A DNA stretch of 64,000 nt from a virus. Positions 5,025-63,563 of the stretch are shown piece after piece. Made by a program: the position numbers and the translations under genes. The stretch lies in the IMG/VR virus record IMGVR_UViG_3300046170_000524. One strand, 5' to 3'. A model generated the notes under the pieces. It saw only the letters and a program-made list of their open reading frames with translations, made no database searches and was not told where the DNA came from. Numbering within the stretch: position 1 is the stretch's first letter; every line of letters starts with the position of its first letter.

Positions 5025-6077
5025 ATGCCAAATCAAAGAATATCAGAACTAAATGAAAAACTTAAATTAAATTCTAATTGTTTGGGGTATATAAAGTTCA
5101 GGGATGCTACCGATGCGGTTAGTACTGATAACAATAAATTACTCTTAATAGCTAAAGAGAGAAGTTACAACAAAAAAACTTCTTTTGCTAATCTTAAAAA
5201 ATCTATATTAGATTCATCTTTACAAAATAATTTAGATCAAAATATAAATGGGAAGAAAATATTTGTAAACAAATGTTCTTTTAGAGAGGTTGCAGATAAA
5301 CAAGTTGAAAACTTATACAAAGACAGCTATATAAATCAGTCAAATACAAACAGTGATCCTTATGCTAAATTTCAAGAAAAACAAATACTTCTCTCCGCGA
5401 GCAATAAAGTAAACTTTTCAAAGTCAGTTTCATTTTCTGAAAAAAACGGACTTAGTATAGGAAAATTACAAAACTTAGGGTCATTAAATACATCCGGCAA
5501 AACCTATATACCAAATATATACATAAAAGAAAATGGAGTTTATAAAAAAGTTGAAAACCAAGAAAATCAAGATAATAATATTTATTTTAACCAAAAATTA
5601 CAGGCCGAAAAAAATATACACAAAATATATCTACCAAAAACTTTTAAATATAAACCAGTTATATCTGTAAACTTATTAAACAATAATCAAGAAAATTTCA
5701 TAGCTTATACTATATTTAATGTAACTGAATTAAGTTTTTATATCAAATTCGATCAAGCATTAAATTCAAACAACTACAGCGTAGACATCTCCGCCTTCAG
5801 TCCGTCTACATTAGATAATTCAAACACAAACCCTTTAAATGATTCAAAAAAAATACAAAGATTCCATACATTATTAAATCAAGATAACACAACTCATACA
5901 ATAAACTTTCCATTTAGCTATAATTCTACCCCAGTAATTCATGTTTCAATTGAAAATGAAGAAATTCCGCCTGTTTATTCAGTCAGCAACATAACAAATA
6001 ATTCATTTGAAATAAAATTCCAAAATAGCACGGGAACAGATTTCATAATTCATACTTTATCGCAAGAAATAAATTAA
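5025..6077 (+). CDS. tail fibre-associated protein with tandem H-type-lectin-like C-terminal repeats
   Basis: N-terminal RISEL and DQNINGKKIF motifs typical of fibre proteins; two repeats (IYLPKTFKYKPVISV; INFPFSYNSTPVIHV). Confidence 0.5.
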   Translation: MPNQRISELNEKLKLNSNCLGYIKFRDATDAVSTDNNKLLLIAKERSYNKKTSFANLKKSILDSSLQNNLDQNINGKKIFVNKCSFREVADKQVENLYKDSYINQSNTNSDPYAKFQEKQILLSASNKVNFSKSVSFSEKNGLSIGKLQNLGSLNTSGKTYIPNIYIKENGVYKKVENQENQDNNIYFNQKLQAEKNIHKIYLPKTFKYKPVISVNLLNNNQENFIAYTIFNVTELSFYIKFDQALNSNNYSVDISAFSPSTLDNSNTNPLNDSKKIQRFHTLLNQDNTTHTINFPFSYNSTPVIHVSIENEEIPPVYSVSNITNNSFEIKFQNSTGTDFIIHTLSQEIN

Positions 6078-6079
6078 AA

Positions 6080-7111
6080 ATGGCAACAAATAATAGAATA
6101 TCAAGTTTCGAAGATCAAGAATCGCTTTCATCTTTTGACAATTCTTTCATTCAATCTGACTTCAATTCATCAATAGGTAATGACGACGACGATGTATTAT
6201 TTCTAATAACCACATCTGGAATAGGGAATGAAAAAATTAGTTTTAAAAATTTAAAAAAATCAATACTAGATACATCCGTATTACTAAGTGGAGATCAAAA
6301 TATTAGAGGGCAAAAAACTTTTCTTCAAGAATGCCTATTTATTGGAGGAGTAGATATAGCTTCGCATAGCGTAGAGGATTACATATATCATTCGGGAGAT
6401 CCATCTACCTATATACAATTTGATTCTGGCGAAATAAATCTATCTGCAGCTAATGCTATCACAATAGATAGCAGCGGTAGTTTCATGTCAATAAGCAACT
6501 CAGGTGCGGTTTCTATAAATTCTCATGAAAAATCGGGAGCTTTAAATGTTAGTGGAGACGCCTTTCTAGATGAAGTTTTCATCTTAAATTCAAATGAGCA
6601 ATTTCAAAAATTAACTTCAAGCGTAGAAGATTCTGTTAATTTTACAATAAACTTAAATCAAGGAGATTCTATTCATACCATCGACCTACCTAAAACTTTT
6701 GAAGAGCCCCCATCGATTTTCCTAACCCTAGAAGAAACAGATGTTAATAAGTCAATATCTCAATTTCAATATTCATTAAATAATATTAAAGAATCTAGTT
6801 TCGAAATTTCATTTCTTTCACCGCTGGCCAGCGACTCGATTAACATGCATGTATTAGCTAAACCAAAAGGAGTTTCTTCGAGCCCTCAAACAAAAACTAT
6901 ATCTTTTACAAAAGATTTAAATTCAGGAGAGTCTTCTTTTCAAGTTGACTTTCCTGAGATATTTAACGATAAGCCGATAATATCTACATCTCTAGAAGCT
7001 TCATTTCAGCAATCTTATATACTGCAAAATACAACAATAGGAAACTTTCAGATATTGTTTGAATCTGGATTACAGCAAGACGCAAAGCTACATATTCACG
7101 CAACAAGATAA
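6080..7111 (+). CDS. tail fibre-associated protein, paralog of 5025-6077
   Basis: RISSF and DQNIRGQKTF motifs; repeats IDLPKTFEEPPSIFL and VDFPEIFNDKPIIST. Confidence 0.5.
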   Translation: MATNNRISSFEDQESLSSFDNSFIQSDFNSSIGNDDDDVLFLITTSGIGNEKISFKNLKKSILDTSVLLSGDQNIRGQKTFLQECLFIGGVDIASHSVEDYIYHSGDPSTYIQFDSGEINLSAANAITIDSSGSFMSISNSGAVSINSHEKSGALNVSGDAFLDEVFILNSNEQFQKLTSSVEDSVNFTINLNQGDSIHTIDLPKTFEEPPSIFLTLEETDVNKSISQFQYSLNNIKESSFEISFLSPLASDSINMHVLAKPKGVSSSPQTKTISFTKDLNSGESSFQVDFPEIFNDKPIISTSLEASFQQSYILQNTTIGNFQILFESGLQQDAKLHIHATR

Positions 7112-54336: not shown

Positions 54337-54540
54337 TGGAGTTAACAATACTACTAACCATTTCGTTTGTAATAGGCATGTTCAGAGGATATTTCGATGG
54401 GCGCGATGATTGATCCAAATATGAAAGACAAATACCCAAATACTAAATAATGAAAATTGCAATAGTAAATAAGACAAATAATAAACTAAATAATAAAAAA
54501 TTTGTGAAATTAGAATAAAAAGAATAAGTAATTAAAAAAA

Positions 54541-54609
54541 TTATTTTGTGCAGTCAGGCCCCCCCTTGAGAGGATAAGTCACAAACTTAGTTGAATATTA
54601 GCCTTGACT
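54541..54609 (+). repeat. GGGCCC module copy 1 (degenerate)
   Basis: GGCCCCCCC 54557-65, TAGTTGAA 54588-95, 7 nt, CTTGACT. Confidence 0.7.
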
Positions 54610-54637
54610 TTGTGCAAAAAAATGTCATACTAAAGCT

Positions 54638-55036
54638 ATGATTAAGACAAAGCCTCACGACAAAAAGTATGAGATTAATTTTAATCAACCTGTCTACGCT
54701 TACAAAAACCTTCACAAAGATTGTTGGAGTATTCGTCAAGATGGATTGGTTAAGGCTCACACAAAAGAACTTTCCATGCACAGTTGCGTGTTTAAAGTCA
54801 GTAAGCATGGAAGAGCAAGAGTGCTAAAAGAAAAACGCAAAAATGTTCATGCAGGTATTGAAGGTTACATTGAACCTTGGTTTGTTGGTAAATGGATTGA
54901 CTCGCATCCAACAGCAAGACCCGTTACTTACAATCCTTACAAGTACGAGAATTTTGTTGACAAGGACACAGAACAAATGGTAGACTATGCTATTGCCGTA
55001 AGACTAGAACCCAAACAAGTATTAGCAGTATTATGA
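54638..55036 (+). CDS. conserved phage hypothetical protein
   Basis: YKNLHKDCWSIR...FKVS..GRARVL.EKRKNVHAG; leaderless start. Confidence 0.65.
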   Translation: MIKTKPHDKKYEINFNQPVYAYKNLHKDCWSIRQDGLVKAHTKELSMHSCVFKVSKHGRARVLKEKRKNVHAGIEGYIEPWFVGKWIDSHPTARPVTYNPYKYENFVDKDTEQMVDYAIAVRLEPKQVLAVL

Positions 55037-55266
55037 CACAAGCAAAAATTAGAGAAGAAATTCTAAGCATAGTTCGAGGAGAACTTGCATGGGCAGATCC
55101 AATGTCCAAAGTATGCTTAGATCAGCACGAATTGCATCCAAAAAAGTTTCCGATTGGCTCAACTTTTCAATCAGCCGAAGAAGTCTTAGACGACATAATT
55201 CATGGCTTGACATCTTTACGAGATGAGATTAGAATAGAATCTTCATTTCAATCCGCACAACTCTAA
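55033..55266 (+). CDS. hypothetical protein
   Basis: ATGA overlap. Confidence 0.55.
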   Translation: MTQAKIREEILSIVRGELAWADPMSKVCLDQHELHPKKFPIGSTFQSAEEVLDDIIHGLTSLRDEIRIESSFQSAQL

Positions 55267-55279
55267 CAAAAGGTAAATT

Positions 55280-55687
55280 ATGGGATTAGATCAAGAAGCA
55301 TACTCACGAGGCAAAGACGAAGAAAGTTCTTTCTCTCATTATTGGCGAAAGCATAATCGTCTCCAAGGATGGATGGAAAACCTTTGGGAAGAAAAAGGTA
55401 GACCAAATTCTCGCACAGAAAATGATCCAATGGGAGACTTTAATTGTGTTGAGCTAGAATTAACAAGAGAAGACATTGATTTGCTAGAGGAAGCAGTAAA
55501 TGATTTTGCATTACCTGAAACACAAGGATTTTTCTTTGGAGATGATTCTTACTTCTACAAAGATGACAATGGAGAATCTCTTCCTGAGAACGATTACTAC
55601 CACAAAGAGCAAGATTTGCAATTCATCGAAGATGCAAAAAAAGCTCTTGACAAAGGTGAGAAAGTTTACTATTCTAGTTGGTATTGA
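55280..55687 (+). CDS. conserved phage hypothetical protein
   Basis: MGLDQ...YWRKHN.LQGWM...FNCV...GFFFG...YYSSWY. Confidence 0.7.
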   Translation: MGLDQEAYSRGKDEESSFSHYWRKHNRLQGWMENLWEEKGRPNSRTENDPMGDFNCVELELTREDIDLLEEAVNDFALPETQGFFFGDDSYFYKDDNGESLPENDYYHKEQDLQFIEDAKKALDKGEKVYYSSWY

Positions 55688-55689
55688 TT

Positions 55690-55890
55690 ATGGAAGAACT
55701 ACAAAACACAATTAACGATCTGCAAGCTAGACTAGCAATAGTTGGCGGAGGCAGGATCATTATTACTAGCGACCATGTTTCGATTCGTCTCGGAAGGGAA
55801 CATGAATACTTTGAGGTTCAAGAACAAAGTTCTTTTGACTCGCCAAACGAAGTCGATGTGGAAATGCACAAACAAATGTACAATTACTAA
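55690..55890 (+). CDS. hypothetical protein
   Basis: ORF in operon. Confidence 0.5.
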   Translation: MEELQNTINDLQARLAIVGGGRIIITSDHVSIRLGREHEYFEVQEQSSFDSPNEVDVEMHKQMYNY

Positions 55891-55891
55891 A

Positions 55892-56107
55892 ATGGAAAAC
55901 GAAAATTACATTAATGCGGTTTGCGAAGGCGAGCCATTAGAAACGCCATCCTACAATCAGGATTCAGAAACTTGGAGTTTATGGTTTGAGGAATCAGAAA
56001 CCCCTTACCATCCATATTTTCAAAAGGATTTAATCGAGGTTCATTTTGAATCTCAAGCGGAAGCAGAGAGTGCTTACAACCATTATTCACAAATTAACCA
56101 AGGTTAA
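55892..56107 (+). CDS. acidic hypothetical protein
   Basis: ORF in operon. Confidence 0.5.
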   Translation: MENENYINAVCEGEPLETPSYNQDSETWSLWFEESETPYHPYFQKDLIEVHFESQAEAESAYNHYSQINQG

Positions 56108-56269
56108 TCATGTCGAATTCAGCTCAATCATTGCAGAAGAAAGTTCGTGAAATAGGTTTTAATTTAGCTATGATCGAAAAGCGTGGGCTTCGGGGCAAGG
56201 ATCATCTTGCTCGCAGGCTTGCACACAATCTCTTGCTTAATCAGCTTTACGAGTTAGAGAAAAAGGTTT

Positions 56270-56316
56270 AGTAGGTTTGGGTTCGGTGGGTTAATCCTGC
56301 CGAACCCTTCTACTTT
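56270..56316 (+). terminator. hairpin, probable terminator
   Basis: AGTAG..GGGTTCGG-TGGG-TTAAT-CCTG-CCGAACCC..CTACT then TTT. Confidence 0.6.
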
Positions 56317-56397
56317 ATTGCACAATTTTACTCAGGCCCCCCGCAAAAGAATAAGTCAATTATTTAGTAGAATGTTTTTTGCATTTGGGGGTTGACA
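56314..56397 (+). repeat. GGGCCC module copy 2 (degenerate)
   Basis: TTATTGCACAATT, GGCCCCCC 56335-42, TAGTAGAA 56365-72, TTGACA 56392. Confidence 0.65.
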
Positions 56398-56562
56398 ATA
56401 CCGGATTTTCTGTCATACTAGTAAACATAAAGGCGATAATCACAAACAAAAAAAATTAGTCGAAACAAAAAAAACTTAATTGAAGAAAAAAAAGCTTGAC
56501 AGATTAGACCAAATTTAGTACAATTAACTCATCAAAGACAATAACTCACAAAGCTAAAAATT

Positions 56563-57315
56563 ATGACAAAAGAAATTAATCTCTCCGTATGTGCAACCAA
56601 AGAATCTTCCTTTAAGGATGTTGAGAATGTAGTGACCCCTCAAGCCACTGACTCTTGGCGACCAATTGGTCACGCTGACCTTGTTAATCGAGTGCAAAAA
56701 CAAATGAAAGGTAATGGTTGGGAAATCGTTAAAACTTACCACTCTCTTCACCGCTTCGGTCAACGCTACTTCGGACTTTTTCATGTTAAGAATACAGGAG
56801 TTGACAACGATGAGCGTGGCACAATCGTTGGGCTTCGTAATTCTCACGACAAATGCTTTCCTGCAGGACTTTGCATGGGCAATGCTCCATTTGTTTGCTC
56901 AAACTTGATTTTTACCAATGAAGTTGTGCTTGCTCGTAGGCATACCAAGAACATCTTGAATGATCTTTCACAAGTAATCGCTCGCACTCTCGGCAAGATG
57001 ACTGAGACATGGGCAAGCGATGAGCAACGCATCAAAGCCTACAAAGAGCATGAACTCGGCAATGAGCAAGCTCATGATCTTGTCATCCGTGCTTACCAAA
57101 ACGGAGCTATTCCAAAAGCAAAGATTGCCGATGTTGTTGAGCAATGGCACAAGCCTGAACATGATGACTTTTCACCTCGCACCATGCACTCATTGTACAA
57201 TGGATTCACTCACATTCTAAAGGGTGGAATTACCGCCTTGCCAAATCGTTCACTTGCATTGCATGGTGTTCTTGACTCGGAAGTCGGTTTGACTTCTCAA
57301 GTTGCAGTTTCTTAA
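56563..57315 (+). CDS. DUF932 (DUF945-like) family protein
   Basis: WRPIGH..LV, RYFG, VGLRNSHDK.FPAGL..G..PFVCSNL.F. Confidence 0.75.
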   Translation: MTKEINLSVCATKESSFKDVENVVTPQATDSWRPIGHADLVNRVQKQMKGNGWEIVKTYHSLHRFGQRYFGLFHVKNTGVDNDERGTIVGLRNSHDKCFPAGLCMGNAPFVCSNLIFTNEVVLARRHTKNILNDLSQVIARTLGKMTETWASDEQRIKAYKEHELGNEQAHDLVIRAYQNGAIPKAKIADVVEQWHKPEHDDFSPRTMHSLYNGFTHILKGGITALPNRSLALHGVLDSEVGLTSQVAVS

Positions 57316-57359
57316 TCATAACCTAACCTAATCTAAAAATCATTAAAACTAATAATACT

Positions 57360-57590
57360 ATGAAAAAACAGCCAAAACTACAAAATGTCGTTGATTCTCT
57401 CAAAGGTCGTTTCACTTCTCTTCTTGTCAAGAGAGGCGAGCAAAGAAGGGTGTATTCCGCCAAAATCACAGGAGTGACTTCTCGTCATGTGATGTTCAAG
57501 GATACCAACGGAGGCAATCGTCGAGTCAATCGTCGTCATGTGCTTCGAGCCACTTGTGCTGACAAAACTTTTAAGAGGTCGGTGAGTTAG
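57360..57590 (+). CDS. small basic hypothetical protein
   Basis: ORF ending before terminator. Confidence 0.55.
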   Translation: MKKQPKLQNVVDSLKGRFTSLLVKRGEQRRVYSAKITGVTSRHVMFKDTNGGNRRVNRRHVLRATCADKTFKRSVS

Positions 57591-57616
57591 TGATTCGCTC
57601 GTAAAGAGCAAAGATT

Positions 57617-57646
57617 AAGCCTCCCGAAAGGGAGGCTTTTTCTTTT
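57617..57646 (+). terminator. intrinsic terminator
   Basis: AAGCCTCCC-GAAA-GGGAGGCTT then TTTCTTTT. Confidence 0.92.
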
Positions 57647-57648
57647 AT

Positions 57649-57722
57649 AAAGTTAACCTATTCAATCCGGGCCCCCCGGCAGTAGAATCGTGCAAAAACT
57701 TAGTTGAATTTTGGACTTGACT
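57649..57722 (+). repeat. GGGCCC module copy 3 (74 bp)
   Basis: AAAGTT...CGGGCCCCCC...GTGCAA-5-TAGTTGAA-7-CTTGACT. Confidence 0.85.
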
Positions 57723-57750
57723 TTAGGCAAGAATTTTTCATAATGAAACC

Positions 57751-58461
57751 ATGATTAAGACAAAAGCACCATTCACAGACCTTTACTCTTCATTTAAAAA
57801 AATTGCCGAACTTGGTTATGTTCAGAGTATGAGACCAGGATCAACAGGAGTTGGATATACTCTTGAAACATTATTGGGCATTAAAGAGAATAGCGATTCT
57901 TCACCTGATCTTGGGACGCACGAGTTAAAGACGACAAGAAAAAAGAGTAAAACTTTGCAGACTTTATTTACTTATGCAACAACAAAAAATTGGAAATTAT
58001 CCAAACGAGAAGTTGTTTATCGTTATGGAACTATCTCAAGAAAAGGAGATACTTTTAACGCTTACAATAGCATAGGAAAAGAACCTAATAAAAATGGTTT
58101 TTACTATGAAACAACAGAAGACTATTTAGTCGTTAAAAATAGGGATGTAGAAATTCTAAGGTGGACATGGGAAGAATTAGGGCATAAGTTTGAAAACAAA
58201 TTTCCTGCTTGCATTAAAGTCTTTGCGAATTCTAAACTAGTAAACAGAAACGAATACTTTCATTTTAATGAAGTCCATCATTACAAAAATGCAGACAAAT
58301 CAAAGTTCAGGAATATGTTCGTGCTCGACAAAATTTCAATTGATTTAAGATTAAAGGTTAGTTCGAGAGATCTTGTAAGAGTTATCGACAAAGGTACAGC
58401 TTTTAGGATTAAAGAGCAAAACATGGAAGATTTATTTGAAAAAGAAGTTATTTTTTCTTGA
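57751..58461 (+). CDS. MvaI/BcnI-family restriction-type endonuclease
   Basis: GSTGVGYTLETLLGIKEN...PDL...ELKT.R...TLFT; D.GTAFRI. Confidence 0.8.
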   Translation: MIKTKAPFTDLYSSFKKIAELGYVQSMRPGSTGVGYTLETLLGIKENSDSSPDLGTHELKTTRKKSKTLQTLFTYATTKNWKLSKREVVYRYGTISRKGDTFNAYNSIGKEPNKNGFYYETTEDYLVVKNRDVEILRWTWEELGHKFENKFPACIKVFANSKLVNRNEYFHFNEVHHYKNADKSKFRNMFVLDKISIDLRLKVSSRDLVRVIDKGTAFRIKEQNMEDLFEKEVIFS

Positions 58462-58491
58462 CTTTCACTACCCATCTGTCATAATGAAACC

Positions 58492-59232
58492 ATGATTAAG
58501 ACAACAATTCTCACTCAAGGAAACGCAAAGATAGTCAAAGGCGAGGAGCTTGGCTATGTAACAAAAGGCATTCATTTCGCTCCTGCTAGTCTCTCAGGTA
58601 ATGAAGTTTGCCAATGGCGAAGCAAAGGTTGCACAGCATCTTGCCTTAACACAGCAGGTCGTGGACAAATGAATTCAATTCAGGCATCAAGAGTAGCAAA
58701 GACAAAACTATTTTTTGACAAGAAAAAAGAATTCATGTACAAGTTGTGCAAAGAAATTGCTTCTTCAATCAAGACTTCAACCAAGAAAGGAATGAAATCA
58801 GTTTTCCGCCTCAATCTAACTAGCGACATTGCTTGGGAAGATGTTTACATGAAAGACCCAGATTACAACATCTTTGAATACTTCTGTGGAGAACAATTCT
58901 ACGATTACACAAAGTCATTCAAGAGAATGTGTGCTTTTCTTGGTAAACCTTTTACTAAAGATGAACAAAAATTTCCATCTAATTACCATCTAACTTTTTC
59001 TCGCTCAGAAAACAATGACAAGAAATGTGAAATGGTTCTTGCTATGGGTGGTAATGTTGCCGTTGTGTTTCGCAACCAACTTCCGCAAACTTGGAAAGGT
59101 TACAAAGTTGTCAATGGTGACGAAAACGATTTGCGTTTTCTCGACAAGCAAGGTGTTGTTGTTGGCTTAATCGAGAAAGGTTTAGCAAAGAAAGATGAAA
59201 CAGGATTTGTACAGGAAGGAGTAAACTCATGA
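58492..59232 (+). CDS. Gp88-like phage protein
   Basis: C..CTASCLN..GRG, RLNLTSDI.WE, FYDYTK, NYHLTFSRSE, GD.NDLRFLD. Confidence 0.65.
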   Translation: MIKTTILTQGNAKIVKGEELGYVTKGIHFAPASLSGNEVCQWRSKGCTASCLNTAGRGQMNSIQASRVAKTKLFFDKKKEFMYKLCKEIASSIKTSTKKGMKSVFRLNLTSDIAWEDVYMKDPDYNIFEYFCGEQFYDYTKSFKRMCAFLGKPFTKDEQKFPSNYHLTFSRSENNDKKCEMVLAMGGNVAVVFRNQLPQTWKGYKVVNGDENDLRFLDKQGVVVGLIEKGLAKKDETGFVQEGVNS

Positions 59233-59396
59233 GTGATACTTATTACGATTCAGCCGAAGAAATTAAACTCTCACAAAGCGAAGCATTTAATGTGCTTGCT
59301 CAACATGGTTGCCAAGAGCTTGATGAATTTTTTCAAGACATGGGCGACAAAGAAGAGTATGATGCACAAAAAGTGTTGGAATGGTTAGGCTACTAA

Positions 59397-59470
59397 AAAG
59401 TTAACCAATCCTGCCGCGGGGGGGCTGCGATAGAATAGTGCAAAAACTTAGTAGAATATTAGTCTTGACT
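59397..59470 (+). repeat. GGGCCC module copy 4 (74 bp, core reads GGGGGGGC)
   Basis: AAAGTTAACC...G7...GTGCAA-AAACT-TAGTAGAA-7-CTTGACT; same length as copy 3. Confidence 0.8.
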
Positions 59471-59498
59471 TCGCTAGAGGTTCTGTCATAATGATACT

Positions 59499-59601
59499 TA
59501 CCGACACGATTTAACCAAGCTGCAAATTGGTGGTAATGAAGAGAAGCATGATTGCAGTCACCGCTCCACTCTTGAGGGTTCAATTCCCTCCGTGTTCGGT
59601 A
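59499..59601 (+). ncRNA. tRNA-like small RNA
   Basis: Begins at the predicted TSS of promoter 59465-59492; closing stem TACCGACACG/CGTGT(T)CGGTA; T-arm GAGGG-TTCAATT-CCCTC; no ORF, no CCA. Confidence 0.65.
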
Positions 59602-59645
59602 TGATTTTTTCTTGACTTTCACCATCAATCTGTCACAATTAAACT

Positions 59646-59759
59646 ATGATTAAGATTAGAAAAACCATTCTCTTCACCAAGTCTAGACCTCACAAGCTTA
59701 AGACTAAAGTGATTCATCGTAAACTCAAACACAAGGAGATTTTAAAAAATGTTCATTAA
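59646..59759 (+). CDS. 37-aa very basic protein (not in ORF track)
   Basis: MIKIRKTILFTKSRPHKLKTKVIHRKLKHKEILKNVH; promoter TTGACT(59612)-16-CACAAT. Confidence 0.55.
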   Translation: MIKIRKTILFTKSRPHKLKTKVIHRKLKHKEILKNVH

Positions 59760-59985
59760 AGAAAATTCTGAAGAAATTCCTAACTCAAAAGAGGCTATGA
59801 GTCTTTGCATGGCATACCTCTGGGAAAATGTCATTGAACCAAGTAGCAAGGAAGGCGTCATTAGTCTAAAAAATTATGACATGATTAAAGAGATTGGTCA
59901 TGCTTTAACCATCATTGGAGAAAAAGCTCATGCCTACGAGAAAATGATTGACAACAACGAGCAATTTCCTTACAATCCTAATTAA
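59749..59985 (+). CDS. hypothetical protein
   Basis: ORF in operon. Confidence 0.55.
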   Translation: MFIKENSEEIPNSKEAMSLCMAYLWENVIEPSSKEGVISLKNYDMIKEIGHALTIIGEKAHAYEKMIDNNEQFPYNPN

Positions 59986-60176
59986 TGAAACACTTGCTAA
60001 CTAAATCAAATGACGGATGCTTCATTATTGTAAGCTCAGAAGAAAAGACAGACAAAAATGATCTGTTCATCTCTGAAGACACATTCAAAAAGAACATTAA
60101 CACTAAAACATTCGTAAAACACTCAACGCTAACCCATAATTCACAACCAATCTACATTTACCATGAAGACCTTTGA
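59985..60176 (+). CDS. hypothetical protein
   Basis: TAATG coupling. Confidence 0.5.
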   Translation: MKHLLTKSNDGCFIIVSSEEKTDKNDLFISEDTFKKNINTKTFVKHSTLTHNSQPIYIYHEDL

Positions 60177-60525
60177 TGACTTAAAATTCGCACCTCACCC
60201 TCACGCAAAAGATTTGGGAGTGACGGCAAGTTTAACCCTTGACAATGGCTATGCTTTCAGCGTTGTTGCTAATACTGATGGTGGTGATCTGTTTTACGGC
60301 AATCACCCAAACACTTTTGAGGTTGCAGTCTTCAATCAACGAGGTGACTTTGTTCCACTCTCTGTTTCGGACGATGTGCTTGGTTGGCAAGCTCCACACC
60401 AAGTGACTTCGCTGATGCATCAATTTGAGATTGACGGAATCAAGCACGAAAAATTACTTCACGATCTTCGGAATGACTTCAACGAAAAAGTAGTAAAAAA
60501 ACACAAAGAAAGGGCAGGATTATGA
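60163..60525 (+). CDS. conserved phage hypothetical protein
   Basis: MKTFDDLKF.PH...LDNGY.FSVV...FEVAV. Confidence 0.65.
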   Translation: MKTFDDLKFAPHPHAKDLGVTASLTLDNGYAFSVVANTDGGDLFYGNHPNTFEVAVFNQRGDFVPLSVSDDVLGWQAPHQVTSLMHQFEIDGIKHEKLLHDLRNDFNEKVVKKHKERAGL

Positions 60526-60716
60526 ATAGTTACCAAATACTAAAGAACGGCGAGCCAATGGGCATTCAAGGAACTTTTGACTACATTGTCAACGCAATAC
60601 GAAACCTTGAATCAAATCTTGATCGAGCAACTGAACATTCACCTTTTACTGTTGCACTCGTAAATACTCAAGCTAAAATAACAAAAAATTTAGTGGAAAC
60701 AACAAATACTAAATAA
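60522..60716 (+). CDS. hypothetical protein
   Basis: Last plus-strand gene before the strand switch. Confidence 0.5.
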   Translation: MNSYQILKNGEPMGIQGTFDYIVNAIRNLESNLDRATEHSPFTVALVNTQAKITKNLVETTNTK

Positions 60717-60780
60717 TAAATAACAAATACTAAATAAAAGAATAGGTCAATCATATAAAAATTATATTATAAAAGTATTT

Positions 60781-60832
60781 AATTAACCGATTCTATCAGG
60801 GCCCCCCTGCAGTGGGATAAGATAACTTTTTA
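60781..60832. repeat. GGGCCC module copy 5, promoter-less, at the convergence point
   Basis: TTAACCGATTCTATCAGGGCCCCCCTGCAG...ATAACTTTTTA between convergent genes. Confidence 0.7.
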
Positions 60833-60837
60833 AGAGG

Positions 60838-61023
60838 TTACTCCCATTGGGAGTGAAATCCCCAATCAATGTCGGGCTGGTCTTCAAATTGTATGAGTGA
60901 GATCTGGTCTTCCAGCTCGCCAATTTCATTGCGTATTGCAATTCTTTGAGAGTCGGTCAAGATGCACTCTTTAAGAACTTTGTGAAGTTCGAGGATTTCT
61001 TTTTGCATTTCGTTTTTGGTCAT
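60838..61023 (-). CDS. hypothetical protein
   Basis: TTGCAA-17-TAAATT, ATG 6 nt later. Confidence 0.6.
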   Translation of the reverse strand: MTKNEMQKEILELHKVLKECILTDSQRIAIRNEIGELEDQISLIQFEDQPDIDWGFHSQWE

Positions 61024-61063
61024 AAAAGTAATTTAGCAAAGTAAAAAAGTAATTGCAAGCTTT

Positions 61064-61291
61064 TTATTCATCCATTAACCACTCGTCAAGTGCGTAAATG
61101 TCAAGCTCTTCATCTTTAAAGCTCGCTCCGTCAGGAGTAGCAAACATTCCTGCATTTTCAAGGCAACTTGCAAGATCCTTAAAGCTCACAAATCTACGAG
61201 AGAGCTTGTAAAGGAATTCGTCATTATCTAACCAAAGAGCGACATTCCAAGTTGCCCAATTTTTCCATCCGTTGTATGTTGTATCTGTCAT
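61064..61291 (-). CDS. conserved phage hypothetical protein
   Basis: YNGWKNWATWNVALWLDNDE; TTGACT-17-TACATT, ATG 6 nt later. Confidence 0.7.
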   Translation of the reverse strand: MTDTTYNGWKNWATWNVALWLDNDEFLYKLSRRFVSFKDLASCLENAGMFATPDGASFKDEELDIYALDEWLMDE

Positions 61292-61320
61292 GATAGTAAT
61301 GTAGTCAAATTTTTCGCAAA

Positions 61321-61394
61321 AGTCAAGAAAAACTTTCAACTATTTTATTGCACAATTCGCTCGCAGGGGGGCCCGAGCCGGATAGTGCAACTTT
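61321..61394 (-). repeat. GGGCCC module copy 6 (74 bp)
   Basis: 61321-61377 matches 63490-63546 with one mismatch in 57 nt. Confidence 0.9.
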
Positions 61395-61434
61395 TTAACG
61401 CTAAAGGTCAGGTCACTAAAAGTGACCTATTGAC

Positions 61435-61506
61435 CTAAAGCATGAACCAAAGAAAGAATAATGGAGAGAGGATTATGCAACCTAGTTCTAGTAAAAGTAA
61501 TTCCAT
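61435..61506 (-). CDS. 23-aa hydrophobic peptide
   Basis: MELLLLELGCIILSPLFFLWFML; followed by hairpin 61405-61436. Confidence 0.45.
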   Translation of the reverse strand: MELLLLELGCIILSPLFFLWFML

Positions 61507-61507
61507 T

Positions 61508-61582
61508 TTAGAAAACTGAATCGGTTATTCCACGAAAAATGCCAATGACGAACGCTATTGAGAGAAGTAGTGCTAATTCCAT
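61508..61582 (-). CDS. 24-aa hydrophobic peptide
   Basis: MELALLLSIAFVIGIFRGITDSVF; TTGACT(61617)-17-TACAAT, ATG 6 nt later. Confidence 0.55.
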   Translation of the reverse strand: MELALLLSIAFVIGIFRGITDSVF

Positions 61583-61619
61583 AATTTAATTGTAGCAAAA
61601 AAAGGCTTGTTAGTCAAGC

Positions 61620-61913
61620 CTATTCTCCGAAGATTTCACGCATTGACGGACTCACGGATTTCATGTCGTGAAGATTTTCGTCATTGTCAAAGTCATCATC
61701 TTCTTCGGCTTTGTCATCAAAAGAAGCAAGCTCTTGAACTTCATCTTGAACATCTTCTTTTTTTGCGTTAAGTAAGCCATATTCGAGAACGAGATCTTCA
61801 GCAAGCTTTTCGACCTTTAATTCTTCAATGAAGTTTTGAAGTACAGGACTTACTTCGGCATTATTATTTTCCGCAATTCTACGGATGTTTTCTAGTCTTT
61901 GTGATTCTGTCAT
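61620..61913 (-). CDS. highly acidic hypothetical protein
   Basis: 28 of 97 residues D/E; promoter TTGCAA-17-TAATCT. Confidence 0.6.
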   Translation of the reverse strand: MTESQRLENIRRIAENNNAEVSPVLQNFIEELKVEKLAEDLVLEYGLLNAKKEDVQDEVQELASFDDKAEEDDDFDNDENLHDMKSVSPSMREIFGE

Positions 61914-61923
61914 AGTAATTAGA

Positions 61924-62109
61924 TTAAACGAATTTTTCAGGTTTTGCAAGCAAAAACTTCATGAAAGTTTCTTGTGCTTTTTGATTGTCTTGAATCTCGT
62001 CAAGCTCAATTTGGGCATTGATGACCATTTGCATGGATTCAATGTTGCCAAGATCGGCAAGAGGTGTTTGGATTCGAATGATTTCTTTGAGTTCTTTTAT
62101 TTTGTCCAT
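61924..62109 (-). CDS. hypothetical protein
   Basis: TTGCAA-17-TAGATT, ATG 6 nt later. Confidence 0.6.
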   Translation of the reverse strand: MDKIKELKEIIRIQTPLADLGNIESMQMVINAQIELDEIQDNQKAQETFMKFLLAKPEKFV

Positions 62110-62156
62110 GGTAGTAATCTAGTTGATTTTTTAATTTATTGCAAGCTAAAAACGAT

Positions 62157-62360
62157 TTATTTTTGAATTTCTTTAAACATTTTTTGAAGAGCTTCAACCT
62201 TTTCAATGAGTCCTTGCGTTGTCATTTCTTCAGTCAAAGTCCTTGCGGATTCTTTTTTTTCTGTGTTCATGTAATGCAAAAACTCAATAGACCCTTTGAT
62301 TTGAGCGAGCTTAATTCCGAAGTCGAGTTCTTGGAGGAGTGTTTCTTTTGTCTTAATCAT
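62157..62360 (-). CDS. hypothetical protein (MIKT start)
   Basis: Leaderless promoter downstream of module copy 7. Confidence 0.6.
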   Translation of the reverse strand: MIKTKETLLQELDFGIKLAQIKGSIEFLHYMNTEKKESARTLTEEMTTQGLIEKVEALQKMFKEIQK

Positions 62361-62389
62361 AAGTAAAAACTACCACAGAAACCGGCAAA

Positions 62390-62462
62390 ACACAAGCCTA
62401 AAATTCAACTATTTTATTGCACAATCCGCTCGCGGGGGGCCCGAGTTGGATCGGGCAACTTT
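62390..62462 (-). repeat. GGGCCC module copy 7 (73 bp)
   Basis: TTCAACTATTTTATTGCACAATCCGCTCGCGGGGGGCCCGAGTTGGATCGGGCAACTTT on the plus strand. Confidence 0.9.
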
Positions 62463-63080
62463 TTAGACGATTTGGGTTAGTCTATTTATTTTTGCTGTGA
62501 GAGTGATTTGCCTTGCCTCATTCTGCCATTTTTGTGAACTATTACTGAACCTTTTATTTCTAGATAGATTCATCACAGAAAAAGCTCCTTCGTGCAGTCT
62601 ATTCACTACCTTGCACAATTCTCTTGTTTCTTTGATTGGATTTGATTTGTCTTTGACAAAGTCAGAGGTTTGAAGCCAAACATTTTTCATTTTCAAGATT
62701 TCAACATTTGTTCTAATTCTGTAAAATTTTACATCAACTAAATTCTCAGGCGTTCCATCCCAAAAGCCGACAACCAAAACCAAACCTTTTTTAATTGTTT
62801 TTAATTTTCTTGCAATGTCTCCGAGTTGAATTTCTTTGCTTTTTATATTGTAGTATTTTACTTCCCAATCTCCGATCAATTTTTTAGGAACTCCGCCTTG
62901 GCGAACAATTTCTTCAGGAAAGTCAACTTCTGCGTTGTGCTGTTCATGAGTAGGAAAGCCAAAGTAATCAGAGATGAAGCGTTCAAACGCTTTGCCGTGC
63001 TTTCCTCTTTGTTTGTTGTGTACGCTGATATTACGAACATATTGTTTGATTTTTGGGAATGATTTTTGTGCAAGTTTCAT
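62463..63080 (-). CDS. putative PD-(D/E)XK restriction-like endonuclease
   Basis: HGKAFE..I, VD...DWEVKYY, IQLGDIARK. Confidence 0.55.
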   Translation of the reverse strand: MKLAQKSFPKIKQYVRNISVHNKQRGKHGKAFERFISDYFGFPTHEQHNAEVDFPEEIVRQGGVPKKLIGDWEVKYYNIKSKEIQLGDIARKLKTIKKGLVLVVGFWDGTPENLVDVKFYRIRTNVEILKMKNVWLQTSDFVKDKSNPIKETRELCKVVNRLHEGAFSVMNLSRNKRFSNSSQKWQNEARQITLTAKINRLTQIV

Positions 63081-63132
63081 AATTTTATTTTTTAAGCAAT
63101 TAGATTTGAGTTTATATAAATTTTTTTTTCTG

Positions 63133-63333
63133 TCAAGCGTTTCTTTCTACTGATTTCCAACCATAAGCTAAAACTTTGTCATTATAGCGAGCTTGTGGAA
63201 GCATAGCCTTGAGGTCAGAAATTTTTGCATTGATCCAATCAATTTCGCTTTGATCCATTTTACCTTGCCACATTGCAAGTTGGTTTTTTTCTATTGCGAT
63301 TTCGTTTTTTATTTGTTCTGTTGTCTTAATCAT
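63133..63333 (-). CDS. hypothetical protein (MIKT start)
   Basis: TTGACT-17-TAGATT, ATG 6 nt later. Confidence 0.6.
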   Translation of the reverse strand: MIKTTEQIKNEIAIEKNQLAMWQGKMDQSEIDWINAKISDLKAMLPQARYNDKVLAYGWKSVERNA

Positions 63334-63489
63334 ATTTACAATCTATTATATATTTTAGCAAAAGTCAAACTTTATTTTACTTTTTTTTGAGTTTTTTTAA
63401 GTTTGAAGGCGAGGAGGATTTTTTCTCTTTCTGTGAGTGGTTGTCTATCTTTTTGATTCATACCTAAACATCGCACAGAAACCCCGAAA

Positions 63490-63563
63490 AGTCAAGAAAA
63501 ACTTTCAACTATTTTATTGCACAATTTGCTCGCAGGGGGGCCCGAGTTGGATCGGGCAACTTT
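63490..63563 (-). repeat. GGGCCC module copy 8 (74 bp)
   Basis: Near-identical to copies 6 and 7. Confidence 0.9.

Follow-up and report, generated by a model that had tools for sequence, protein, structure and literature searches.

The question raised by this locus is why one short module recurs at the boundaries of small genes in a single region of a phage genome. The locus lies in a 64,000 nt stretch of DNA from an uncultured marine phage, IMG/VR record IMGVR_UViG_3300046170_000524, and this whole stretch is referred to here as the window. An earlier note on the window had described a module of 74 bp, present in eight copies mirrored around a strand switch, and had proposed that it combines a regulator-binding site with a recombination or cassette-boundary element. 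We suggest that the module is best read as belonging to a leaderless, fixed-geometry variant of the promoter-early stem-loop (PeSL) cassettes of T4-type phages, and not as a new kind of element. In brief, the 74 bp module probably represents the upstream two-thirds of a composite, PeSL-type control cassette for early genes, which is shuffled by homologous recombination. Behind this reading stand the anatomy of the unit, its conservation, its confinement to one region and cassette-level differences between relatives, all of them observed directly.

The proposed cassette would consist of four parts. The first would be a GC-rich stem-loop, a G-run followed by a C-run, often lengthened by the inverted arms TTGNCCGATCC and GGATYGTGCAA and with an A5 tract ahead of it. 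The second would be an upstream promoter block from -67 to -36, made up of the box ATYGTGCAA and the A/T-rich AAAATAGTTGAAAGTTTTTC, which resembles an upstream promoter (UP) element. The third would be a promoter for the housekeeping sigma factor (TTGACT, 16-17 nt, then CATAAT or TAYSTT), and the fourth a start codon seven bases past the -10 box, giving a leaderless mRNA that often starts with ATGATTAAGA. The cassettes would form two convergent arrays of small early genes, with a promoter-less stem-loop copy between them. With the same 50-140 bases returning at intervals of ~1 kb, the copies would allow general homologous recombination to delete, insert, duplicate and swap whole genes while leaving their expression undisturbed.

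Copies of the unit in the window

All eight copies were located where the earlier note had placed them, within 54.5-63.6 kb of the window. A profile scan, which the same note had proposed, gave no significant match in the other 54 kb of the window; related contigs carry several copies each. As had been described, the orientation is plus for copies 1-4 and minus for copies 6-8, and the promoter-less copy 5 sits between the convergent gene blocks. Three motifs of the unit occur far more often in the window than expected: GGGCCCCC (5 occurrences, 0.06 expected), RATNGTGCAA (10 occurrences, 1.6 expected) and TAGTWGAA-N8-TTGAC (7 occurrences, 0.24 expected).

Measured from AAAGTT to TTGACT, copies 3 (57649-57722, plus), 4 (59397-59470, plus), 6 (61321-61394, minus) and 8 (63490-63563, minus) are exactly 74 bp long, the length originally reported, and copy 7 (62390-62462, minus) is 73 bp long. 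The near-identity of copies 6 and 8 was likewise confirmed, with 94% identity over 80 nt and one mismatch between CTCGGG and the -35 box. Copy 6 does contain the dyad TTGCAC-N31-GTGCAA with an inner CTCG/CGAG. Copies 1 and 2 depart from the consensus that had been drawn for the module. Copy 1 (54533-54611, plus) has degenerate arms and a GGCCCCCCC core, followed by TAGTTGAA-N8-TTGACT. Copy 2 (56309-56397, plus) is degenerate too, with weak arms and ~10 extra bases ahead of TTGACA; TTGCACAATT, its left arm, mirrors the right-arm box perfectly.

Start codons lie close behind most of these promoters. Copy 1 has its -10 box at 54626-54631 and an ATG at 54638, and copy 3 has its -10 box at 57739-57744 and a leaderless ATG at 57751. 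On the minus strand, copy 6 leads to an ATG at 61291, copy 7, with the -35 box TTGTGT, to a leaderless ATG at 62360, and copy 8 to an ATG at 63460 that opens a 29-codon open reading frame (63371-63460, minus; MNQKDRQPLTEREKILLAF...). This reading frame is kept in a near relative, and its first residues resemble the beginnings of longer genes in other contigs. The promoter of copy 4 leads to a tRNA-like RNA and has no ATG. No ATG follows the -10 box of copy 2 either; ~100 nt of A-rich non-coding sequence come next (56392-56562, plus), and a second promoter at 56496-56524 (plus), with a leader of ~32 nt, serves a DUF932 gene that starts at 56563.

Copy 5 (60781-60832, minus) consists of the hairpin/dyad part alone, without a promoter. 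It is flanked by the last plus gene (end 60716) and the last minus gene (end 60838). Read on the plus strand it is a hairpin followed by AACTTTTTA, the right end that had been noted before, and it aligns better in the minus sense, as copies 6-8 do. The same slot at the convergence point is also occupied in relatives.

Anatomy and conservation of the unit

We aligned 55 distinct promoter-bearing copies from many contigs, anchored on the -35 box. Positions -67 to -27 carry ~1.5-2 bits each, reading G-ATYGTGCAA, W, AAAATAGTTGAAAGTTTTTC, TTGACT-TTT, and this block is conserved to the same degree as the -35 box. Within it, the far-upstream box ATYGTGCAA (-66 to -57) is nearly invariant at 1.6-2.0 bits and the A/T-rich stretch AAAATAGTTGAAAGTTTTTC (-55 to -36) carries 1.2-2 bits. 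Copies lacking both the core and the left arm still keep the part from -67 to -36. The G-run/C-run core (-85 to -72) carries 0.7-1.4 bits, with a fixed 3' edge, CCCGC, and a variable 5' edge; a G2-7/C3-8 core is found in 40 of the 55 copies. The left arm (TAAAAAGTTGNCCGATCC) is weakly conserved overall, because it is restricted to a subset of the copies. In many copies the outer arms TTGNCCGATCC and GGATYGTGCAA are inverted to each other, with an A5 tract ahead. An A4-5 tract is (nearly) invariant in the left-arm alignment, and A-runs flank the dyad on the promoter-sense strand.

All promoter-bearing copies match the sigma70 type, TTGACT-N16/17 followed by CATAAT, CATACT or TAYSTT, where the -10 box takes the form (TGT)CATAAT/CATACT or TGTG-N-TAYSTT. 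A promoter scan picked out these hexamers as well. The A of the ATG is found 35 nt after the first T of TTGACT, that is seven bases past the -10 hexamer. This leaves no room for a leader, and the mRNAs are therefore predicted to be leaderless. Many of the genes share a start tag and begin with ATGATTAAGA.

Strong bacterial promoters of the rrnB P1 type carry UP elements and far-upstream activator sites. The unit resembles these in having an A/T-rich block from -38 to -58 that is conserved together with the -35 box, and a further conserved site just upstream of it. It differs in that its sequence is not the UP consensus of E. coli and in that the block is conserved as strongly as the -35 hexamer.

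The 74 bp module is made of two joined parts, since each of them also occurs alone. The stem-loop/dyad part stands alone in copy 5 and in hairpin-only copies of relatives, and the extended upstream promoter part stands alone at 58450 and 59604 in the window.

The fixed spacing and variable filler reported for the module were upheld in part. Spacing is constant within +/-1-2 bp, whereas the G/C runs vary even between near-identical genomes. In copies 1, 2, 4, 7 and 8, that is in five of the eight cores, the length or boundary of the G/C run differs from that in contigs L002 and L010, which represent genomes 97-98% identical to the window, and the rest of each module is nearly unchanged. These differences reflect either homopolymer slippage, template switching or assembly errors in the runs. 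The core of copy 4, which reads G7C, had been taken to be inverted. This did not hold: in three close relatives the orthologous core reads G4C5, G6C3 and G7C1 at a constant total length.

A second type of stem-loop lies upstream of the GC core in several relatives (L004 at 5310-5370, 6425-6470 and 7039-7080; L005 at 5780-5841; L017, L020, L021, L106 and L117). It has a stem of the form TAAG.../...CTTA and a conserved loop of about YTGAYAGTCAAYGR, and its stem extensions look compensatory by eye, e.g. CTCCTAAG/TTAGGAG and GTAAG/CTTAC. In the window this TAAG/CTTA type is not found above chance.

Distribution in relatives

No GenBank phage matched the 10-kb region at the nucleotide level. Pattern scans of IMG/VR and metagenome contigs located the unit in ~25 related contigs from aquatic samples, usually in several copies each. 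It should be noted that a loose dyad pattern gave mostly chance matches in metagenome contigs, with real copies at only ~10 listed loci. One relative of 184 kb is rated complete, and its copies are confined to ~103.7-114 kb. They follow the order of plus-facing copies, a hairpin-only copy, minus-facing copies and a divergently transcribed gene. The mirrored layout around a promoter-less copy is therefore a conserved property of the clade and not an accident of the window. In a further contig (L151, IMGVR_UViG_3300048549_001807), an unrelated strong GC hairpin, GGGAGAGGG...CCCTCTCCC at 1560-1620, lies at the convergence of two early arrays and occupies the place of the hairpin-only module copy of other lineages.

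Cassette differences between relatives

Gene content between the copies, whose invariance across relatives the earlier note had named as evidence against its proposal, is variable. Our reference for comparison was a contig 97-98% identical to the window, from which it differs by three changes.

The first change is a 741-bp cassette (57764-58504, plus) that is missing from the 97% identical relative and comprises a nuclease gene plus one promoter repeat. The gene (57751-58461, plus) encodes a restriction-type nuclease of the MvaI/BcnI family (Pfam PF15515, E 1.7e-42). The cassette is bounded by direct promoter repeats, and its junction falls inside the shared stretch of -10 box and start tag. 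Its right end is the promoter-only repeat at 58450-58501 (plus), which reads TTGACT-N16-CATAAT-N6-ATGATTAAGA and has no hairpin; the stop codon of the nuclease gene falls within the -35 box of this repeat. In a third relative, the nuclease gene is directly followed by a promoter located 1,154 bp further along in the window.

The second change is a cassette of ~146 bp (59472-59610, plus) with -35 repeats at both ends, which carries the tRNA-like RNA and is also missing from the 97% identical relative. It lies behind the promoter of copy 4, and its right end is the promoter-only repeat at 59604-59655 (plus), a core promoter alone that makes up family D2 together with the repeat at 58450-58501. 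The RNA-like fold spans 107 nt (59498-59604, plus; -33.3 kcal/mol, z -2.6) and has a long closing stem plus a T-arm-like hairpin. It is present in the window and in the metagenome relative L049 and is missing from contigs L002 and L006. Neither ARAGORN nor Rfam recognised the fold. For the region as a whole, ARAGORN found no tRNA, and Rfam gave two chance-level matches only and no family for the module.

The third change is an allele swap at 62463-63080 (minus), where identity drops to ~75% at the nucleotide and 67% at the amino acid level between flanks that are 98-100% identical. At its edges identity is 100% through copy 7 up to the T-run, and again 100% from the ATG of the gene on. The product, a 205-residue protein of an early gene, has no family match; a D...EVK motif in it resembles the site of PD-(D/E)XK nucleases.

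Taken against near relatives, there are four events, and every end lies in repeats. Two contigs of a second lineage have a duplicated cassette, a cassette in another slot and several cassettes that are unique or lost. The module copies themselves are mosaic: in the relative, the promoter half of copy 4 equals the promoter half of copy 3. Most genes among the copies are small early genes without family matches, and they are gathered in one ~10-kb region. The proposal of a cassette-boundary element, and the comparison with PeSLs that came with it, thus proved apt: even at 97-98% identity, whole cassettes set relatives apart, and the ends of these cassettes fall within the repeats.

Breakpoints were located in the repeat of -35 box, -10 box and start tag, at the ATG and at the T-run on the outer side of the unit; none lies in the GC core. 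No cassette was seen in opposite orientation between relatives. As the breakpoints are spread over the homology and no integrase or resolvase match was found in the complete relative, the exchange points to homologous recombination between short repeats and not to a site-specific system. It is highly improbable that a dedicated recombinase or invertase, as in integrons, uses the GC core for crossover: the units do border mobile cassettes, both orientations occur and the authors who described PeSLs speculated on a recombination protein that binds GGGG...CCCC (PMC2839356), but the breakpoints avoid the core, no cassette is flipped, the supposedly inverted core of copy 4 reflects a G/C boundary that slides, and PF00589 (Phage_integrase) and PF00239 (Resolvase) are unmatched in the complete 184-kb relative, with controls positive in 14 and 12 genomes, so that the site-specific recombination suggested in the earlier note is not supported.

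Two side observations concern the nuclease gene. CCWGG is depleted in the window, with 11 sites against 32 +/- 6 expected. For CCSGG, which we take to be the BcnI site, the count is 7 against 12.6 expected, no clear depletion, and copy 3, just upstream of the nuclease gene, has two of these sites in its core. A homing pair of nuclease and core was considered and dropped; the CCSGG sites are also present in the relative without the gene, and no other copy in the window contains them.

Comparison with PeSL elements

PeSLs were described in the T4-type phages RB49/phi1, PST/T4 and nt-1/KVP40 (Arbiol et al. 2010, PMC2839356; Comeau et al. 2014, PMC4122927). In brief, a PeSL has an AT-rich upstream region, a sigma70 promoter and a stem-loop of the form 'GN-loop-CN'. 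PeSLs lie between small genes of hyperplastic regions, with recombination breakpoints in the promoter, and recombination of neighbouring PeSLs produces indels as well as mini-circles, the crossovers falling in the stretch from the -10 box to the ATG. The PeSL stem-loop terminates transcription in a lacZ test (PMC2839356; PMC4122927).

The unit described here shares with PeSLs the AT-rich upstream region, the near-consensus sigma70 promoter and a stem-loop built from a G-run and then a C-run. Like them, it is repeated in short gaps among small unknown genes of one plastic region, and whole genes are inserted, deleted or replaced between close relatives, where the breakpoints lie inside the repeats, the stretch from the -10 box to the ATG among them. 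Several features set it apart. Its stem-loop sits at one fixed place (about -95 to -57), whereas PeSL stem-loops are found at five variable places. It has two conserved inverted arms with an A5 tract and the nearly invariant far-upstream box ATYGTGCAA, and it is arranged in two convergent arrays with a promoter-less copy between them. By analogy, the promoters are likely to be early and strong, and the stem-loop may insulate the units from each other or terminate transcription between them.

It should be noted that not all evidence favours the assignment to PeSLs or a role for the stem-loop, and the following points weigh against it. The units have no Shine-Dalgarno sequence, unlike PeSLs, and the start codon lies at the predicted transcription start. 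The Pfam families Gp23 and Portal_T4 gave no match in the complete 184-kb relative, in a search without positive control, so that the carrier clade may differ from the known PeSL phages in its T4 capsid and portal families. The outer dyad TTGNCCGATCC/GGATYGTGCAA does not pair better than expected: over 11 pairs in 33 distinct copies, 73.6% of positions are paired against 73.9% after shuffling, with no base-pair covariation and no excess of compensatory changes. The flanks of the G/C run pair no better than shuffled flanks either (z near 0, up to the 30th of 37 copies), and copies 3 and 5 do not exceed shuffles in the folding of their hairpins. Given the lack of covariation, the evidence for selection of the structure as RNA is weak. 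In the sense orientation the stem is followed by UAAAAUAGUUG and not by a U-run, so that the module does not qualify as a canonical intrinsic terminator for the upstream gene. Copies 2 and 3 have terminators of their own, and two internal promoters have no hairpin at all.

The unit nevertheless matches PeSLs on every tested feature but two, the Shine-Dalgarno sequence and, as far as the search without positive control goes, the T4 capsid and portal, and we therefore class it as a PeSL variant. The window carries RIIB-like and ligase genes.

Role of the stem-loop

Three observations fit an insulating or terminating role of the stem-loop in the PeSL-type cassette, each of them resting on few independent events. 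The 62 nt upstream of the conserved block fold with a mean of -16.8 kcal/mol where a core is present and of -9 to -10 kcal/mol where it is absent. The weakest module hairpins in the window are those of copies 2 and 3, and both of these copies are directly preceded by separate, canonical intrinsic terminators, at 56279-56317 (plus) and 57617-57647 (plus) respectively. Finally, the unrelated hairpin of contig L151 takes the place of the hairpin-only copy. A replacement of the core by other hairpins in core-less copies found no statistical support (z about 0). As to which strand folds, wobble and mismatch counts made by eye point in both directions.

It is possible, if unlikely, that the arms (TTGNCCGATCC ... 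GGATYGTGCAA), or the right-arm box by itself, form an operator or activator site for a phage or host protein, with the GC core as a spacer. The bound protein would switch the whole early regulon on or off, and this would be compatible with the cassette reading. The centres of the arms are about 31 bp apart. The box ATYGTGCAA is nearly invariant, persists in copies without core and left arm and is enriched in the window (10 against 1.6 expected), and the arms are conserved as sequence, without compensatory changes, at a spacing within 20-22 bp. Such a sequence-conserved box without covariation of the arms would fit recognition by a protein. However, about half of the copies lack the left half-site, and the G/C runs change length between 97% identical genomes, which shifts the phase of the half-sites. 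Gene conversion between the repeats could also yield the identity of the copies. A scan of ten small early proteins, to which the AbrB-like and WYL-like candidates of the earlier note do not belong, gave no DNA-binding domain.

Another tentative explanation, which we likewise do not favour, is that the left arm and core form a Rho-independent terminator that acts against the promoter direction only (hairpin, then ACUUUUUAG). Each array would then be shielded from opposing read-through, and read-through in the same direction would pass. This would explain the mirroring around the strand switch. On the sense strand the dyad has A-runs on either side, which leaves the direction against the promoter as the only one in which a canonical terminator could be read. 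Read in that direction, the stem of 26 of the 29 distinct left-arm copies ends 0-3 nt before the T-run ACTTTTTAG, with a mean of -14.3 kcal/mol. A terminator scan marks copies 7 and 8 as terminator-like on the plus strand, with GCCCGAGTTGGATCGGGC followed by AACTTTTTAG. The (nearly) invariant A4-5 tract and the restriction of dyad-flanking A-runs to the sense strand agree with this explanation, and copy 5 turns its terminator face to the plus-strand block.

The unit thus resembles Rho-independent terminators in its GC-rich hairpin and T-run only when read against the promoter, and it departs from them in the shortness of the T-run, in having none toward the upstream gene and in that half of the family has no T-run. 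The U-run would be only 4-5 bases long and would begin 1-3 nt past a stem whose base is often A-U-rich, and copies of relatives with other left flanks have no T-run. Folding energy is equal on both strands, with means of -15.35 kcal/mol in the sense and -15.44 kcal/mol in the antisense direction (17 copies against 19), and why a backward-facing terminator should be needed in every unit is unexplained.

More generally, the dyad-plus-core half might be an active control device, either such a one-way terminator or an operator for a leaderless early regulon with the ATGATTAAGA tag; we regard this as rather unlikely. A second promoter inside the arms, with TTGACC or TTGCAC as its -35 box, was rejected, as neither strand has a suitably spaced -10 box.

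RNase III sites between the early genes of phage T7 offer a parallel for yet another explanation, in which the intergenic hairpin would be cut, or be protective, on the sense strand of read-through transcripts and so give stable single-gene messages. In copies 4, 5, 7 and 8 only a few bases separate the start of the element from the stop codon upstream, and copy 7 has a sense fold of -20.7 kcal/mol (z -3.2; antisense z -1.7). Five lineages have no core at the outermost promoter of the array, where no co-directional gene lies upstream; these five promoters are orthologous and therefore count as one event. There is no covariation and the folds of several copies are weak, and we consider such RNA processing or stabilisation quite improbable.

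A different repeated promoter

A different repeated promoter, family D4, lies outside the early region, at 7105, 10335, 14463 and 53067 (all plus). It reads CTTGACA-N17-GATAAT/TATAAT, ~6 nt and then CAT/ATG, and is placed tight against the following start.

Implications

PeSLs have so far been described only in T4-type phages of enterobacteria and vibrios. The same design is now found in an uncultured marine phage clade without detectable T4 capsid or portal, as judged by a search without positive control. In this clade it has a stricter geometry, predicted leaderless messages and a mirrored layout of two arrays. This suggests that the PeSL design is either old or convergent, and that it is a general means by which large phages keep fast-changing early genes expressible. 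If the one-way terminator is true, the convergent arrays would be insulated from each other at every cassette. The family supplies defined sequences for studying binding of the box, termination in one direction and the exchange of cassettes through short repeats.

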